Source: Pseudomonadota bacterium (GTDB lineage Bacteria; Myxococcota; JACRCW01; JAFGSX01). From it: a stretch of DNA of 64,000 nucleotides. Shown here one piece after another: positions 18,977 to 33,940 of this stretch. The stretch is taken from contig JBDRCO010000051.1 in assembly GCA_043821645.1 (NCBI GenBank), forward strand, positions 64,001 to 128,000, read 5' to 3'. Positions within the stretch are counted from its first letter, which is position 1. Every line of letters starts with the position of its first letter. The notes below the pieces were generated by a model. That model ran no database searches. It was not told the origin of the DNA and worked only from the letters and a program-made list of their open reading frames with translations. Made by a program: the position numbers and the translations under genes.

Positions 18977-19054
18977 TTTCTTGTTTCGGAGAATCCAGCG
19001 CTGGGCGATCCTGCCTGCTCACCACACACGCGGATTCTCCCCGCGAGGTTGTGC

Positions 19055-20629
19055 ATGCCAAAAGAGCCGATGATTCCTGACGATCTCAGCGTCCCCGACG
19101 ACGAGAAGTCCTCGCGCGCCGCTCTCTCCAGTGCGGCTGTGCCCGCCTCGCCCCCGGAGCCCACGGCAACCGCCAGCGTGGACATCGTGCCACCGGCCGC
19201 TGCGCCTCCGGCGCCTGCGCCCGCCGTGGAGCTGTTCCGACCACCGAGCGACGACATGACGACGGCTTATGGCATCCCGGCGCCCCCGGCTGCGCCGACT
19301 GCGGCGACCATCGAGCACGATCCGCTCCCGGTCTCCATGTACGGCATCATCCCGCCTCCGGAATCCCTCGGATCCGGCGACGACGACGACGATGACCTGG
19401 TGGCGTGGAAGAGCCGACCCCGGAGCGGCTCGCCGCGCCTGCGCCAGGCCCTGTGGGTGCTGGCTGCCGCTGCCCTGTTCGGTGCCACGCTTTCCGCGGT
19501 GTCGACGGCGGACTTCGTGCAGCACCTCGACAGGCAGGTGCACAGCATCCACTGCTCCATCATCCCGGGCGCGGGCCAGAGCTTCGCCGACAGCGGCTGC
19601 AAGGCCGCGCTGATGAGCCCCTACTCGTCGGTGCTGCGCACGACCCTGTGGGGCGGTCTGCCCATCGCTCTGCTGGCCCTGGCCGTGTTCGCCTACCTGG
19701 TGTACCGCGCCGTGGACTTCTCGCTGCGGCCACAGATCACCAGGCGCGAGACCATGTTCCTGATAGCTGCGACCGGGCTGCCCGTCGCCATGAGCGCCAT
19801 CTACGGCACCATCTCGGCAACCCGGGTCGGCGCCCTGTGCTCGGTATGCCTGGGCATGTACCTCAGCTCGGCCCTGGCCCTGGCCGCGGCGGTGTTCGCA
19901 CACCGTCAGGCCTCGGCGGCGCCCCTGGACGGGCAGGGACAGAAGCCTTTTTTACGGTGGTTCGGCGAGGGCGTGCTCTTCGTGTGCGTGCTCGGCGGCC
20001 TGCATCTGGCCCTGGCCCCCACCAGCGAGCGCAGCCTCAAGGGTTGCGGCACCCTGGTCAAGAAGGACGATCCCGCCCGGGTGCTGCTCCACCTTGGCGG
20101 TCGCCACCAGGGCGTGGACAGCGTGGCCGTGATGGATCCGCTGTGCGCGGCCTGCAAGGGCTTTGACGGGCGCCTGGCCCAGAGCGGGCTGCGCGATCGT
20201 CTGAACCTGCGTACCGTGCTCATGCCCCTGGACTCGAGCTGCAACTGGATGGTCAAGCAGAGCGTGCACCCGGGCGCCTGCGCCGTGTCCGAGGCCATGC
20301 TGTGCGACGCCGAGCGCGCCGAAGAGGTGCTCAGCTATGCCTTCGAGCAGCAGGCGGACCTGATTGCCCTGGCGCGCAAGGACGAGAAGGCCCTGCGCAC
20401 CCAGCTCGAGAACCGGTTCCCCCACGTCAAGGGCTGCCTGGGCACCCCCGCGATCAAGAACAAGCTCAACAAGAGCCTGCGCTGGACCGTGGCCAATGCC
20501 CTGCCCGTGCTCACCCCGCAGCTCTTTGTCGGTGACACCCGGGTCTGCGACGAGGACACGGACCTGGGACTGGAGTTCACCGTGGCGGCGCTGCTCGAGC
20601 AGCCGGCCGCCACAAGGAGCCGACGATGA
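19055..20629 (+). CDS. VKOR (vitamin K epoxide reductase)-family membrane protein fused to DsbA/thioredoxin domain, Pro-rich N-terminus
   Basis: VKOR loop Cys pair (HCS...SGCKAALMSPYS), TM helices, CSVC; thioredoxin DPLCAAC, DSSCN, LTP cis-Pro loop. Confidence 0.88.
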   Translation: MPKEPMIPDDLSVPDDEKSSRAALSSAAVPASPPEPTATASVDIVPPAAAPPAPAPAVELFRPPSDDMTTAYGIPAPPAAPTAATIEHDPLPVSMYGIIPPPESLGSGDDDDDDLVAWKSRPRSGSPRLRQALWVLAAAALFGATLSAVSTADFVQHLDRQVHSIHCSIIPGAGQSFADSGCKAALMSPYSSVLRTTLWGGLPIALLALAVFAYLVYRAVDFSLRPQITRRETMFLIAATGLPVAMSAIYGTISATRVGALCSVCLGMYLSSALALAAAVFAHRQASAAPLDGQGQKPFLRWFGEGVLFVCVLGGLHLALAPTSERSLKGCGTLVKKDDPARVLLHLGGRHQGVDSVAVMDPLCAACKGFDGRLAQSGLRDRLNLRTVLMPLDSSCNWMVKQSVHPGACAVSEAMLCDAERAEEVLSYAFEQQADLIALARKDEKALRTQLENRFPHVKGCLGTPAIKNKLNKSLRWTVANALPVLTPQLFVGDTRVCDEDTDLGLEFTVAALLEQPAATRSRR

Positions 20630-28576: not shown

Positions 28577-29947
28577 TCAGGCCCCGTCCCGCCCTGCTAG
28601 CACGATGCCGTAGCGCTGCGCTTCGTCCGGTGTGTCGAGGTCGCACAGCACCCGGGGGTCCGCGACGGCCACACGCTGGACGCGGGCACCCTCGTGCTCG
28701 ACAACCGCGGCCGCGCCAGCGTCCGCCGTGGCATCGCGAAGCGAGGCAAAGAGCCCGCGGCCAAAGACCGCCGGATGCCCTGTCCTGCCGTCGTGCTCGG
28801 GAACGGCCACGTGGCTGGTCGAGGCTTCCTGGATCAAGGTCCTGAGCAGCTCGGCGTCGAAAAACGGGCAGTCCACCGGCGCCACCGCCAGGGCACCGGC
28901 GGCGTCCCCCACCAGGTCGAGCGCAGTCCGGATCGAGCCGATCAGACCCTGCTGCGGCCGCCGGTTCTCGACCGGAACCACGTCGAGATCCGCAACCGCC
29001 GCACGAATGGCTGCGCCGGTGGCGTCGGAAGGGACGGTCACCAGGCAAGGACGTGCGCCAGCCTCGAGAGAGATCCGCGCCAGCCTGTGCACCAGGGTCT
29101 CGCCATCGAGCATCAGCAAGGCCTTGGGTTGCCCCATGCGCCGCGAGTCACCTGCCGCAGCCACCAGCGCAGCGGCAATCCTGTGCTCCGCGGCCTCATG
29201 ACGGACCCGGACCAGCTCCCCGACAATGCTGAGGGCGATCTCCTGCGGGGTCTCGGCGCCGATGGCCAGGCCCACGGGAACCTGCAGGCGTGCCACCTCG
29301 GCCTCCGAGAAGCCAGACTCGAGCAGGTTGCGACGAAGTGTCGCGCCCTTGCGCCGACTCCCCATCACCCCGAGGAAGCGCGCAGAGCGCCGCAGAACCT
29401 GGCGCACGCAGTGCTCATCCTGGGCGTGGCGATAGGTTGTGATCACCACGTAGCTGTGCGGGCCGAAGGGCAAGCTGGCAATGGCGTCGGGCGAGAAACT
29501 GGAGACGAGCTGGCGCGCCATCGGAAAGCGTGCGGCGGTGACGAAATCAGGCCTGTCGTCGATGACGATCACGGCGAAGCCCATGTCGTGCGCGATTCGG
29601 GCCGTGACCTCACCGATGTGACCGGCGCCGAACAGGAGCACAAGCGGTGCTCTCGCCAGTGGCTCCACAAACAGGGCCACGCGGCCGCCACAGCTCATGC
29701 CCAGGTCGGCGCCGAGATCGAGTTCGATCAAGGTGGGCTCGGCCTCGTCCATGCGCGCACGCGCGAGCTCCGTGGCACGCAGTTCCAGCGTCCCACCGCC
29801 CACGGTCCCCTCGCTGCGGCCATCGAGGTGAACCAGCATGCGCGTACCGCACTTGCCCGGGGTCGAACCCTGGCTGTGGACGACGGTCACCAGGACCGCG
29901 GGCTTCCCCTGGCCGGCGACCTCGGCGATGCGTTCCCAGCTCAGCAC
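28577..29947 (-). CDS. XdhC/CoxI Moco chaperone fused to MocA-like molybdenum cofactor cytidylyltransferase
   Basis: GSTPGK.G, GTVGGG, GMSCGG, FGAGH, GVMGS, PVGL.IGAETPQEIALSI; then AAGDSRRMGQPKALL, GHP..F, DLDTP. Confidence 0.9.
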   Translation of the reverse strand: MLSWERIAEVAGQGKPAVLVTVVHSQGSTPGKCGTRMLVHLDGRSEGTVGGGTLELRATELARARMDEAEPTLIELDLGADLGMSCGGRVALFVEPLARAPLVLLFGAGHIGEVTARIAHDMGFAVIVIDDRPDFVTAARFPMARQLVSSFSPDAIASLPFGPHSYVVITTYRHAQDEHCVRQVLRRSARFLGVMGSRRKGATLRRNLLESGFSEAEVARLQVPVGLAIGAETPQEIALSIVGELVRVRHEAAEHRIAAALVAAAGDSRRMGQPKALLMLDGETLVHRLARISLEAGARPCLVTVPSDATGAAIRAAVADLDVVPVENRRPQQGLIGSIRTALDLVGDAAGALAVAPVDCPFFDAELLRTLIQEASTSHVAVPEHDGRTGHPAVFGRGLFASLRDATADAGAAAVVEHEGARVQRVAVADPRVLCDLDTPDEAQRYGIVLAGRDGA

Positions 29948-29952
29948 GACAG

Positions 29953-30930
29953 CTAGCGCTTCTTGGCAGGCTTCTTGGCGGGTGCAGGCTTCTTGGCAGG
30001 TGCAGGCTTCTTGGCAGGTGCAGGCTTCTTGGCAGGTGCAGGCTTCTTGGCAGGTGCAGCCTTCTTGGCAGGCGCAGCCTTCTTGGCAGGCGCAGCCTTC
30101 TTGGCAGGTGCAGCCTTCTTGGCAGGTGCAGCCTTCTTGGCAGGTGCAGCCTTCTTGGCAGGCGCAGCCTTCTTGGCAGGCGCAGCCTTCTTGGCTGGTG
30201 CAGCCTTCTTGGCAGGCGCAGCCGCCTTGGCAGGTGCAGCCTTCTTGGCAGGTGCTGCAACCTTGACGGGCATCGCTTTCTTGGCGGGCAAAGCCCCCTT
30301 GGCGACGGCCTGCGAGGGAGCCCCGGCCGCCATCGGTCGCATGGACGACGGGGTCGCCCCTGCCGGGATGGGTCGGCGAGCACGCGCCTCGCTGGCTGCA
30401 TGGGCCGCGCGCATCGCCTCAGTGGCGATCTGCACAGGTTTGGGCACTGGCCCCAGGTTCACGGCAGACTCGTCGTGGCGACCCTTGTTCTTGCGCTCCT
30501 CGGCGGGATCCAGGAACAGGCTGCACACTGCAGTGCCCTTGACCACGATGTCGTTGGCCTGGTTCTGCACCCAGACGTCGCAATCCATCCTGTGCTGCTT
30601 GTCCTGCTCGTACTTGCGCACCACCACGCCCTTGGCCGTGAGGGTATCGCCTGGCCACAGCAACTTCTGAAAGCGCGTGGCCACCGACAGAATCTGGCCA
30701 TTGTCGAGCCAGTTTTCGAGCATCTCGGTGGCCGCGGCCATGCCGAGCAAGCCCGGGGCCGAGATGCTTCCGAAACCGGCCTGCCGCGCGAAATCCTCGT
30801 CGATGTGCAGCGGCCCTGTCTCGTTGGCGCGGACCGAGAACACCACGATGGACGCTCGGGTGAGCGCGGCCTTGGACTGGGGTGGGATGGGATCCCCGAT
30901 CTCGACGTCGTTCCAGTACAGCTTTGCCAT
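29953..30930 (-). CDS. MaoC-family dehydratase subunit with histone H1-like PAKK-repeat tail
   Basis: MaoC hot-dog pattern (PLHIDEDFARQAGF..APG, RF...PGDTL); tail of 16 AAPAKK/PAPAKK units. Confidence 0.85.
   Translation of the reverse strand: MAKLYWNDVEIGDPIPPQSKAALTRASIVVFSVRANETGPLHIDEDFARQAGFGSISAPGLLGMAAATEMLENWLDNGQILSVATRFQKLLWPGDTLTAKGVVVRKYEQDKQHRMDCDVWVQNQANDIVVKGTAVCSLFLDPAEERKNKGRHDESAVNLGPVPKPVQIATEAMRAAHAASEARARRPIPAGATPSSMRPMAAGAPSQAVAKGALPAKKAMPVKVAAPAKKAAPAKAAAPAKKAAPAKKAAPAKKAAPAKKAAPAKKAAPAKKAAPAKKAAPAKKAAPAKKAAPAKKPAPAKKPAPAKKPAPAKKPAPAKKPAKKR
29971..30258. repeat. 18-bp tandem repeat, 16 units, coding AAPAKK/PAPAKK on the minus strand
   Basis: Unit CTTCTTGGCAGG(T/C)GCAG(C/G), 288 bp, no spacers. 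Confidence 0.95.
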
Positions 30931-30960
30931 GTCCTGTGGGCCCCGTGCAAAAAGGTGAGA

Positions 30961-31410
30961 TCAGCGCCTCGGAAAACCACCGCGGATCGCGAGCACACGC
31001 CGCGCCGTGAACAGGGGCTTGCCCTTGGTGTCAACGCCACGGTCCTCGATGGTGACGAAGCCCGTGGTGGCACTCCCGATGGGGCGTTCCTGCACGTCGG
31101 TGATGATGGAGAACACCTTGATGGCATCCCCCGCCAGCAGGGGGCGCCGCTGCTCGATGGTTTGCTCGCTGTGCAGCACGTTCTTGGCGTGCACCTCCAG
31201 CAAGCTGATCAGAACGTCGTGCTGGCCCAGGCTTGCCGCCATGCTGGAGGGCGCCACCAGCCCGGGATAGCCCGCCTTGCTGGCCGCCGCCTCGTCATGA
31301 TGCACGGGGTTTTTAGCACCGATCGCAAGCGCGAAGTTCCTGATATCACTGCGATCAATCTCGATCGTCCGCGTTTCAGTGGCGGTGCCAATCAATTTTC
31401 TCTGCCTCAT
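30961..31410 (-). CDS. MaoC N-terminal/FAS1-like dehydratase subunit (HadA-like)
   Basis: IRNFALAIGAKNPVHHD..A..AGY..LVAP, LHSEQ...RPLLAGD; RBS GGGGAG. Confidence 0.85.
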   Translation of the reverse strand: MRQRKLIGTATETRTIEIDRSDIRNFALAIGAKNPVHHDEAAASKAGYPGLVAPSSMAASLGQHDVLISLLEVHAKNVLHSEQTIEQRRPLLAGDAIKVFSIITDVQERPIGSATTGFVTIEDRGVDTKGKPLFTARRVLAIRGGFPRR

Positions 31411-31725
31411 GGTTCTCCCCGACTCACCGCAATATCAATTCTGGTCACCGCGCCCACACCGCGCAAAAGGTAAATAATGTTGCCTGGTTGTGACCATTTC
31501 CCGAGGGGGCCTGGCAGCCGCTTTCTCACCCTTGTCCAGTGCGGCGTCCGTGGTAAAAAACCCCAGAGGTGGCGGCAGCATACCACAGCGCCCCGATATG
31601 TCTAGACATTATCCATGCCTTGCAGCCGCCCAGGAACCGGCTCGCGCGAACCCGGCTTTTGTCTGCACCAAGCACGGGCCCCGAGTATGATGTGCCCCCA
31701 CGTGGTCTGCACCCAGGGAGTCTGC

Positions 31726-32280
31726 ATGCGCGTTCGTCACCTTGCTGTCTGTGCGTCCTCTATCCTGCTCCTCGTGGCCTGCCGGCCGCGGGTCGATCCG
31801 GACCCGCCCGCCGCTCCGGCGTCACCCACACCCAGTGAGGCCCCACAGGTGCAGCCGCTTGCCCAGCCCGCGGGTCCGACACCCGAGCTGTTCCTGCCCG
31901 AGAACCGATTCGACGGCGGCAAGGTCAAGCAGGGAGAGCCGATCCGGCACACCTTCATCGTCAAGAACAAGGGCCTGGGTGAGCTGAACATCGAAAAAGT
32001 GCAGGGCTCCTGAGGTTGCACCGCCGCTCTCGTGTCAGAGCGGAACGTGCCCCCCGGCGGTGAGGCCAAGATCGACGTCACCGTGATCACCTCGGGTCGA
32101 CTCGGCCGGATCGGCAAGACGGTGCGCGTGCACTCCAACGATCCCAAGCAGCCCGTGGCCAGCCTGACCATCGAGGGAGAGATCGAGACTCCCGAGGGCG
32201 CACTGCCTCCGGCCAAACCACCGCTGCGCCCCCTGGTCAAGGCCGTGGCACCCTCGACCAGCGTCAAGACCACGCACTGA
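31726..32280 (+). CDS. DUF1573-domain lipoprotein, probable selenoprotein (UGA at 32011-32013 read as Sec; U-G-C motif)
   Basis: RBS GGGAG; lipobox LVAC; FDGGKVKQGEPIRHTFIVKN.G..L.IEKVQGS-TGA-GCTA...VPPGGEAKIDV...KTVRVHSNDP continues in frame across the UGA, where DUF1573 normally has S-C-G-C. Confidence 0.88.
32011..32050 (+). promoter_or_regulatory. Bacterial SECIS-like hairpin directly 3' of in-frame UGA
   Basis: TGA GGTT GCAC CG CCGCTCT [CGTGTC] AGAGCGG AAC GTGC: perfect 7-bp upper stem (32024-32030/32037-32043), 4-bp lower stem, G-containing apical loop. Confidence 0.75.
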
Positions 32281-32310: not shown

Positions 32311-33279
32311 TCAGGCGGGGGCAAGACGCCCGCGGTCCAGTTCGGCATGCGCGGTCTCGCCACGAAGCAACTGGACAGCGTGCGGCAGCGCCTCGCGCAC
32401 AGCGTCGAGATTCTCGATTGCCGCCTTGGGGCTTCCGGGCAGATTCAGGATCAGGCTGTGTCCGCGGATGCCGCACACGCCTCGCTGCAGCATGGCGTGG
32501 GGCGTGATGCGCAGGGAGGCCGCGCGCATCGCCTCGGCCAGGCCCGGAACCTCGCGCTCGAGGACCGCCCGGGTGGCCTCGGGGGTGACATCTCGCGCTG
32601 CGCAGCCAGTGCCGCCGCTGGTGCACACGAGGTCCATGCCACGACCGCTGTAGTCCCTAAGCACAGCCTGGATCGCTGGCGCTTCGTCGGCGACAAGCGC
32701 TGTCCAGGCCACCCGCGCCGAGAGATTCTGTTCCAGCCACCGGGCCACCGCAGGCCCGGCCAGGTCCACGGTCTCGCCTCGATGGCAGCGATCGGACACC
32801 GTGACCACGGCCACCTGCAGCACGCCTGCCGGCACCCGGTGCAGGACCTCGACGCTGTCCCCGGTCTGGATCGGCGCGCCTCGTTGCACCCGGGCAAACA
32901 GACCTCGCCGGGGCATGATGCAGTCGCCAGTGGTCTTGTAGATGGCGCAGCGGTGGTGGCACACCTTGCCAACCTGCGTGATCTCGAGCTCGGCTCCGCC
33001 CACCCGCAGCTGGCTCCCGGGGGCCAGATCGGCCAGGGCGATCCCCGTCACGACGAGATTCTCGCCAAAAGCGCCGGGCTCCAGGGTCAGCCCCTTGGCC
33101 CGCATGGACTCGATGTCCAGCTCGTCGAGCAGGCTGACCTGGCGATGACCGGCTCCGGCATGCGCGTCGCCGAGCAGGCCATGGTCCGCCCGCAGTTCAG
33201 CCTGGCCCACGGCGAGCTTGACCACGCCCTTGGAGGTGGAGGTGCAGATCTGCAGCAGCCGTCCCGTCGCCTCAGCCAT
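32311..33279 (-). CDS. MOSC domain fused to MogA/MoaB molybdopterin adenylyltransferase
   Basis: ATG 33279 after GGAGG; GLLGDAHAG..HRQVSLL, GAFGENL, GKVCHHRC, CIMPRRG; then VTVSDR, SGGTG..RDVTPEAT, NLPGSPKA. Confidence 0.9.
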   Translation of the reverse strand: MAEATGRLLQICTSTSKGVVKLAVGQAELRADHGLLGDAHAGAGHRQVSLLDELDIESMRAKGLTLEPGAFGENLVVTGIALADLAPGSQLRVGGAELEITQVGKVCHHRCAIYKTTGDCIMPRRGLFARVQRGAPIQTGDSVEVLHRVPAGVLQVAVVTVSDRCHRGETVDLAGPAVARWLEQNLSARVAWTALVADEAPAIQAVLRDYSGRGMDLVCTSGGTGCAARDVTPEATRAVLEREVPGLAEAMRAASLRITPHAMLQRGVCGIRGHSLILNLPGSPKAAIENLDAVREALPHAVQLLRGETAHAELDRGRLAPA

Positions 33280-33940
33280 GCGACACCTCCTCGTCACGCA
33301 GGCCCCGCGCCACCAGCTGCCTGGTCACCAGCGCCGAGCGCCTGACGCTGATCTGGGTCCAGCGCGCTCGCAGCCGTTCGCGCCGCGCGGGATCCAGGTC
33401 GCCATCGCCGCCCAGGCAACGGCGCCGCCCCTGGGCCAGCGTGGACAGCGACAGGGCGGCGGCCACCGACACGTTGAAGGATCCCGTGAAGCCGTGCATG
33501 GGAATCACGAAGCGCCCGTCGAGGTGGCGCCGTGCCACCGGACTCAGGCCCCGGCGCTCGCTTCCGAGCACGACCACCAGCGGGCGATCCACAGGTACCT
33601 CGGCGATGGGCACGGCACCGGCGCCCAGGTCCGCACCCCAGGCCTCGAAGCCCCGGGCCTGCAGCGTCCCCAGGCAACGCGCCAGCCTGTCCTCGACATG
33701 CAGGGTGAGCCAGCGCTCGGCGCCGGCAGCAGCCTTGTGCCCGGGACGCTGCCTCGATCCACGCTGGATCAGGTGGACATCCTGGACGCCGACGGCCTCG
33801 GCGCTGCGCAACACGGCCGCGACGTTGTGAGCGTCGCAGAAGTCCTCGAGCACCACGACCAGGGAGCCCAGCCGCGACTGCAATACCTGCTCGATGCGTC
33901 GCCTCCGCTCGTCCGTGAGCAGGGCCGCCAGGGCCTGCAT
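33272..33940 (-). CDS. TrmH/SpoU-family RNA 2'-O-methyltransferase
   Basis: VVLED..DAHNVAAVLRSAEAVG, LGSERRGLS, IPMHGFTGSFNVSVAA; start uncertain (ATG 33940 or upstream GTG). Confidence 0.88.
   Translation of the reverse strand: MQALAALLTDERRRRIEQVLQSRLGSLVVVLEDFCDAHNVAAVLRSAEAVGVQDVHLIQRGSRQRPGHKAAAGAERWLTLHVEDRLARCLGTLQARGFEAWGADLGAGAVPIAEVPVDRPLVVVLGSERRGLSPVARRHLDGRFVIPMHGFTGSFNVSVAAALSLSTLAQGRRRCLGGDGDLDPARRERLRARWTQISVRRSALVTRQLVARGLRDEEVSHG

Follow-up and report, generated by a model that had tools for sequence, protein, structure and literature searches.

We found that positions 31726..32280 on the forward strand of the window, i.e. the 64,000-nt stretch C51:64001-128000 of a metagenome-type draft genome (7.07 Mb, 140 contigs), very probably form a single gene, which encodes a 184-residue OS_HP2 / DUF1573 'U-G-C' selenoprotein lipoprotein and in which the UGA at 32011-32013 is read as selenocysteine (Sec). 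Based on the genomic evidence as a whole, the internal TGA almost certainly encodes Sec, and from the same evidence we infer the actual insertion of Sec as well as the export, lipidation and chemistry of the product. Translated with TGA as U, the frame runs from the ATG at 31726 to the TGA at 32278-32280 and contains a single internal TGA at codon 96 (M...VQGS-U-GCTAALVSERNVPPGGE...). Calling of open reading frames (ORFs) with table 11 cuts the gene into 31615-32013 and 32032-32280; the split at the TGA that a preliminary description of this DNA had pointed out is real, and the frame is open on both sides. The description also had the domain continuing in frame past the TGA, and a single match to Pfam DUF1573 (PF07610) indeed covers residues 59-153 in one stretch over this codon (E 1.4e-21, 76.8 bits with a cut-off of 26.1, profile positions 5-98 of 98). 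Among NCBIfam models, NF041425 'OS_HP2 family (seleno)protein' scores highest (93.2 bits, E 9.7e-27, positions 1-98 of 98, scored with C in place of U), with the next-best model at 18 bits, and a six-frame search returned NF041425 with 87.9 bits and 1 TGA inside the match.

Selenocysteine machinery, relatives and selection

A selenoprotein at this place implied selABCD elsewhere in the genome, and this prediction was borne out. We found, all above curated cut-offs, i) a tRNA-Sec with 78.6 bits (gathering score 47) and the anticodon TCA according to ARAGORN, ii) selA with 531 bits, iii) selB with 256 bits in a 651-aa ORF with SelB wing_2 and wing_3 domains and iv) selD with 388 bits. The selD gene (G000:C87:204011-204937, locus L018) has its own in-frame TGA at the usual G-A-G-U position, and a hairpin GGGCCAGG-GGA-CCUGGCCC starts 13 nt past this UGA. 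This selenocysteine insertion sequence (SECIS) is nearly identical, and arranged in the same way, in four related genomes.

Relatives share the UGA at the site, a point on which the preliminary description had made its reading depend. Among the 37 NF041425 matches in 41 related genomes, the seven best (85-100 bits) each contain one TGA, always in the same column, and the 30 weaker ones (<=49 bits) contain none. In a scan of genome contigs with one genome per species, the TGA stands at this column in 74 of the 80 loci (73 U-G-C and one U-A-C) and the remaining six read C-G-C, while a metagenome scan, also of 80 loci, gave 73 Sec forms, six Cys forms and one unparsed locus. The 12 Cys forms from both scans have TGC or TGT at the Sec column and read S-C-G-C there without exception, which agrees with the earlier placement of the TGA at the first Cys of the family's S-C-G-C motif. 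Within a 301-genome phylum sample, strong matches occur in 20 genomes, and the TGA is present in 19 of the 26 matches.

Selection on the sequence behind the TGA points in the same direction. Downstream of the codon, dN/dS is 0.31 against the relative L051 (dS 0.98) and 0.23 against L052; the corresponding values upstream are 0.51 and 0.26. The low ratio after the TGA argues that translation of the downstream part is still going on or ceased only very recently. The two metatranscriptome runs that belong to the source study contain next to none of the words of the stretch and are therefore uninformative on expression.

Two hairpins downstream of the UGA

The hairpin CCGCTCT-CGTGTC-AGAGCGG starts with the 11th nucleotide after the TGA and is extended by a lower stem of GCAC and GTGC. 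Both parts had been described from the letters, and folding with ViennaRNA reproduced exactly the 7-bp hairpin plus lower stem. The published bSECIS model (PMC13188914, Fig. 2A legend) describes a hairpin with 3-9 nt in the loop and 4-16 bp in the stem, in which one of the first two loop nucleotides is a G with a G or U directly after it, the UGA-to-loop distance is 16-37 nt and the minimum free energy is <= -7.5 kcal/mol. The window hairpin agrees with this model on every point, as it combines a 6-nt loop (CGUGUC) that has its G at position 2 followed by U, a 7-bp stem, a spacing of 17 nt and a folding energy of -10.4 kcal/mol alone or -15.5 kcal/mol with the lower stem. Among 73 Sec forms, the extended hairpin ranks seventh in energy, and that of the nearest relative L051 ranks first (-25.4 kcal/mol). 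The lower stem occurs only in these two, where Val is encoded by GUG at a position for which the others use AUU, GUU or CUU. In the proposed mechanism, SelB together with Sec-tRNA(Sec) would bind the extended hairpin, which would lie at the mRNA entrance once the ribosome arrives at the UGA; the TGA at 32278, which has no such hairpin, would terminate translation.

The signal of this first hairpin comes from the family comparison and not from the window sequence alone. A perfect stem of at least 5 bp is found at the site in 67 of 73 distinct Sec forms and in 49% of synonymous shuffles, and Sec forms fold better than their shuffles (mean z -1.35, negative in 67/73). The 12 Cys forms, in contrast, show no excess structure (mean z -0.21, negative in 6/12). 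The position of the hairpin is rather constant, with the loop starting 16-22 nt after the UGA in 68 of the 71 Sec forms that have any stem, and its sequence is variable (48 different 5' arms among these 71). Since the register of the stems varies widely (12 different i+j sums), RNAalifold missed this hairpin in the ungapped codon alignment and returned a second one only; for the same reason, synonymous-shuffle statistics rather than a covariance model were used. An Rfam search around the TGA of the window and around the second hairpin of a relative gave chance-level matches only (best E 1.5-5).

This second hairpin is frozen at the level of codons. In Sec forms, the codons for (I/V/L)-P-P-G-G-E read NUU CCC CCG GGY GGG GAA, and 67 of the 73 Sec forms from genomes contain exactly the string CCCCCGGGYGGGGAA, for which their own codon usage predicts 0.34 of 73. 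The string is likewise present in 67 of the 73 metagenome Sec forms and in none of the 12 Cys forms, although these encode the same P-P-G-G-E. The 17-nt element UUCCCCCGGGYGGGGAA (L055:6139-6155; columns 41-57 of alignment A2) folds as UUCCCC-CGGGY-GGGGAA with a loop that starts 40 nt after the UGA, and it is found over at least seven phylum labels. Of 128 distinct Sec-form 60-mers, 122 have all six Watson-Crick pairs and four have one G.U wobble. All four stem substitutions outside the lineage of the window and L051 keep the pairing as G.U, which speaks for a sense-strand RNA and not for a DNA site. Elsewhere in the domain, conserved residues vary freely at their synonymous sites, with a share of the top codon of 0.32-0.68 (0.89 for Cys98). 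In four genomes tested, the element is confined to the OS_HP2 gene apart from one further hit with one mismatch in one of them, and it is absent from the genome of the window. Retrieval bias does not account for this, because copies found by the hidden Markov model (HMM) carry the element and Cys forms found by pattern vary freely.

As additional controls, we considered the Cys paralogues that stand beside Sec copies in the genomes of family f4, but these proved unusable because they are CxC variants with A-P-G in place of P-P-G-G-E. In several of these genomes, one or two Cys paralogues are found within about 1.5-3 kb of an OS_HP2 gene of the Sec form (G066:C156:3438-5088, G071:C606:4743-6412, G056:C84:17125-18945, G045:C11:112906-116382), and these paralogues have CNC, CPC, CAC or CGS motifs and A-P-G or G-P-G replacing P-P-G.

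With regard to the published model, the second hairpin falls just outside the spacing rule. In 72 of 73 Sec forms this G-loop hairpin stands at a spacing of 40-41 nt, i.e. 3-4 nt beyond the 37-nt limit, and a model-type hairpin 16-30 nt after the UGA is present in only 23 of 73, the window included (counted with perfect stems of at least 4 bp). When the folded first hairpin is left out of the count as an insertion, the distance from the UGA to the loop of the second shrinks to 16-28 nt, mostly 22 nt, compared with 21 nt in selD. It is conceivable, if rather doubtful, that OS_HP2 genes use a non-canonical two-part SECIS, in which the variable, co-varying hairpin about 13 nt after the UGA would be a folded spacer and the invariant G-loop hairpin would be read by SelB or the ribosome; the lineage of the window would then have changed over naturally to a canonical SECIS of one hairpin. 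The second hairpin may also serve a role unrelated to SelB. We found no paper in the open-access literature that describes this element, which is frozen at synonymous sites and restricted to Sec forms. Should the two-part SECIS hold true, the window and the typical forms would make a ready pair for dissecting what bacterial SelB needs, with the window copy as a natural loss-of-element variant.

Several observations weigh against the reading of the gene as a functional OS_HP2 selenoprotein gene. First, the window hairpin taken alone is within chance for GC-rich DNA, since an equally good fold arises in 21 of 200 dinucleotide shuffles (z -1.32) and in 13 of 200 synonymous-codon shuffles, and a 7-bp stem is found in 5% of the synonymous-codon shuffles. 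Second, the 93.2 bits of the window protein are below the 100-bit cut-off that NCBI uses as annotation threshold for NF041425; 23 of the 26 strong matches in the phylum sample, TGA copies included, are also below 100 bits. By homology and motif the protein is of the OS_HP2 type, but not by the NCBI naming rule. Third, the window is the sole loss of the second hairpin among the 128 distinct Sec-form sequences, and decoding could be poor if this element is needed. While the element of L051 has one mismatch, that of the window has four changes at otherwise fixed positions, two of the six pairs are broken, the loop reads CCGG for CGGG and its energy is the weakest of 73 (-4.5 compared with a median of -8.8 kcal/mol).

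The third observation is the basis for the most serious alternative, namely a poorly decoded or decaying copy, in which the UGA mostly terminates translation, a truncated lipoprotein of 95 residues is made and the gene is on its way to a pseudogene. The retention of the element in the other Sec forms together with its absence from 12 of 12 Cys forms ties it to Sec decoding, which adds to the argument. However, purifying selection still acts on the sequence downstream of the TGA despite a dS of about 1, this sequence contains neither a frameshift nor a further stop, and the HMM match reaches position 98 of 98. Besides, the first hairpin of the window is strong and one of the few that comply with the canonical model, and the first hairpin of L051, the strongest of the set, fits a compensation. 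Taken together, we regard a decaying copy as improbable.

That this is a normal DUF1573 gene of the Cys type, hit by a simple nonsense mutation or by a mistake in sequencing or assembly, is far harder to reconcile with the data, even if the sequence stems from a metagenome-type draft in 140 contigs. A contig that stems from another study (2016) shows 0 differences over 31881-32096 and repeats the TGA, as one would wish for in a test of the sequencing error that the preliminary description had named as a threat; this comparison used contigs and not raw reads, and the depth of the independent run is low (3.2). The contigs of the run that may be the source cover the whole stretch. The same TGA in two assemblies from different studies and in the same column in 147 relatives, in a genome that has the Sec machinery and with a Sec-linked RNA structure 3' of the codon, leaves a very small probability for this explanation. 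Finally, a UGA read as an ordinary sense codon (Trp or Gly code) would account for the open frame and nothing more, and is next to impossible, as the terminator of the same gene is also TGA and therefore no general UGA-sense code is in use, internal TGA codons are absent from selA, selB and most of the other matched genes, and a dedicated tRNA-Sec is present.

Protein, gene neighbourhood and a possible function

We place the start of the selenoprotein gene at 31726 rather than at the upstream ATG at 31615 because of the GGGAG that precedes it. In the relative L051 (= L027), the signal peptide begins directly at the Met equivalent to the start in the window, which supports this choice. The features of the gene are compiled in Table 1.

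Table 1. Coordinates of the predicted selenoprotein gene and its parts in the window
Feature	Position	Strand	Basis
Shine-Dalgarno-like GGGAG, 7 nt 5' of the ATG	31714..31718	+	read from the sequence
Coding sequence, predicted Sec at codon 96, stop TGA 32278-32280	31726..32280	+	translation, DUF1573 match, dN/dS
Putative signal peptide, lipobox L-V-A-C, Cys19 codon 31780-31782	31726..31782	+	read by eye from the translation MRVRHLAVCASSILLLVAC
OS_HP2 / DUF1573 Ig-like domain	31894..32187	+	NF041425, six-frame match, AlphaFold, Foldseek
Predicted Sec codon UGA (U96), first of the U-G-C motif 32011-32019	32011..32013	+	column invariant, alignments A1 and A4
Predicted SECIS upper hairpin, 7-bp stem 32024-32030/32037-32043, loop CGUGUC 32031-36	32024..32043	+	folding, bSECIS model
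Predicted extended SECIS, lower stem GCAC 32018-21 / GUGC 32047-50	32018..32050	+	folding
Degenerate counterpart of the second hairpin, UGCCCCCCGGCGGUGAG vs UUCCCCCGGGYGGGGAA	32048..32064	+	family comparison

Lipoprotein signals consist of a positive n-region, a hydrophobic core and a lipobox [LVI][ASTVI][GAS]C, and the N-terminus MRVRH-LAVCASSILL-LVAC reads by eye as such a signal with Cys19 as lipidation site. The AlphaFold model is a seven-strand sandwich with a mean pLDDT of 85 (94-98 over residues 51-150), in which Sec96-Gly-Cys98 occupies the turn that follows strand 87-94 and reaches into the beginning of strand 98-102. H75, N81, G83, U96, G97, C98 and P109-E113 are among the invariant or near-invariant residues of the family alignment, and the Pfam model HYDIN_VesB_CFA65-like_Ig also matches the protein. 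The Ig-like fold claimed in the preliminary description is supported by this model and by its Foldseek matches to Protein Data Bank (PDB) entry 2qsv and to HYDIN/ASH domains. The Ig-like fold and the lipobox fit an exported, lipid-anchored protein: the product would be exported, lipidated at Cys19 and display an Ig-like beta-sandwich of the PapD/ASH type.

With respect to the chemistry of the U-G-C motif, the gene context in other phyla is informative. In 18 of the 80 loci from the genome contigs, the OS_HP2 gene stands within an arsenic-resistance cluster, defined by the presence of arsR, arsC, acr3, arsF-like or arsG-like genes that share its strand and lie no more than 6 kb away on either side. 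The clusters hold some or all of these genes, for which one example per cluster was annotated: arsR, a thioredoxin-type arsC-like gene (TIGR02691, 149 bits and thus under the 174-bit cut-off), acr3 (TIGR00832, 459 bits), an ArsF-family gene (NF040494, 115 bits) and an ArsG-family permease (NF040495, 304 bits). Some of the loci also include a MacB-type ABC transporter, and a cluster of 254-aa proteins encoded upstream of this transporter has no useful match in Pfam or NCBIfam. All of these loci (L068, L072, L073, L076, L089-L091, L095, L096, L101, L111, L115, L119, L120, L124, L125, L128, L130) are labelled Ignavibacteria, Zixibacteria, Gemmatimonadota or Glassbacteria, and a total of 28 loci bear one of these four labels. 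We found no paper on this context of OS_HP2 in the open-access literature.

We tentatively propose that the selenol/thiol pair might bind or hand over a soft metalloid or metal outside the cytoplasm, with As(III) as the first candidate because of this context. A selenenylsulfide redox couple would be the alternative chemistry and is plausible in principle, if unlikely. CxC motifs serve both metal-binding and redox roles elsewhere. The arsenic proposal has to face three objections. The link occurs in no locus labelled Myxococcota, 'Deltaproteobacteria' or Thermodesulfobacteriota, there is no ars gene among the 45 ORFs scanned in the window from 19 to 45 kb, and the visible candidate ligands are limited to U, C and a near-invariant His. 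Nevertheless, the recurrent ars context offers a concrete hypothesis for the OS_HP2 family, namely extracytoplasmic arsenic handling.

No neighbour is conserved family-wide; apart from the gene itself and antisense shadows, the largest cluster of neighbours comprises 16 of 81 loci. Nine loci labelled Myxococcota or 'Deltaproteobacteria' have PhoU_div downstream, eight of them together with a PHO4 transporter and seven with an Ig-like gene. In L055-L057, L060, L065, L080, L093 and L117, which belong to one Myxococcota clade, PhoU_div (DUF47) and PHO4/PiT phosphate-transporter genes follow on the same strand. PHO4/PiT phosphate transporters also carry arsenate. The window has neither the ars nor the PhoU_div/PHO4 arrangement, and its own neighbours give no functional hint: the gene is alone on the plus strand among minus-strand genes for MaoC-type dehydratases, an XdhC-MobA fusion and a MOSC-MoCF fusion.

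Some of these neighbours deserve a description in their own right. Molybdenum-cofactor genes flank the selenoprotein gene, with the fusion of XdhC and a MobA-like domain upstream (28577-29944, minus strand) and that of MOSC and MoCF_biosynth downstream (32311-33294, minus strand). One MaoC-like dehydratase (29953-30930, minus strand) has a long C-terminal tail rich in Lys, Ala and Pro, (AAPAKK)n, which resembles the tails of histone H1-like proteins, and the repeat DNA gives rise to long shadow ORFs on the opposite strand (29647-31473, 29963-30670). Further away, 11 kb upstream, a 526-aa ORF (19049-20626, plus strand) contains a VKOR (vitamin K epoxide reductase, DsbB-like) domain and is a possible envelope thiol oxidant.

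Known members of the family and related systems

Sec-containing DUF1573 proteins had been said to be already predicted, with their function unknown, and the family is indeed curated as NF041425 and covered in reviews. OS_HP2 is one of six new selenoprotein families in Table 2 of Zhang and Gladyshev 2007 (PMC1976440), and according to the legend of Figure 5 in that paper, SECIS predictions are shown for five of these families, OS_HP2 being the one left out. The family also appears as OS_HP2 or 'DUF1573 domain-containing protein, UGC' in tables of PMC9312934 and PMC13188914, and the entries in all three papers give its function as unknown. The window gene is thus an additional member of an already catalogued family and adds little by itself; the frozen second hairpin of the family and its loss in this copy alone are the less ordinary result. 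The gene may, however, stay mis-annotated, as it is split by table-11 calling and its six-frame score is under the NCBI naming cut-off.

The domain and the U-G-C column of the window gene are the same as in the OS_HP2 family, and its product is 41-67% identical to 55 aligned relatives (Sec and Cys forms together), with the family-level relative L027 at 67%. The form of the protein is different. Among the loci examined, the short form, a putative single-domain lipoprotein (184 aa in the window), is shared by the window and L051/L027 alone, whereas the other OS_HP2 loci have one or more further Ig-like domains after the first, in open frames of roughly 290-600 codons.

Among solved structures, the best match is the DUF1573 protein of Porphyromonas gingivalis (PDB 2qsv), which has the same beta-sandwich (Foldseek E 1.3e-7), followed by the PapD-like Ig domains of HYDIN/ASH with the same fold (Foldseek E 6.9e-7). 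At the level of sequence, the match to 2qsv is marginal with E 0.15, and a PDB sequence search with the window protein gave nothing better. Aligned to the window protein, 2qsv has no Cys at the positions of Sec96 or Cys98, and neither 2qsv nor the HYDIN/ASH structures have been assigned a redox or metal function.

For the RNA element, the closest comparison comes from selD of the same genome and its four relatives. Their SECIS is a single hairpin with an 8-bp GC-rich stem and a G-rich loop, GGA, which lies 21 nt past the UGA. The sequence differs from that of the window hairpin, but the position of the selD hairpin, 13 nt after the UGA, resembles that of the hairpin in the window, the loop of which lies 17 nt after the UGA.

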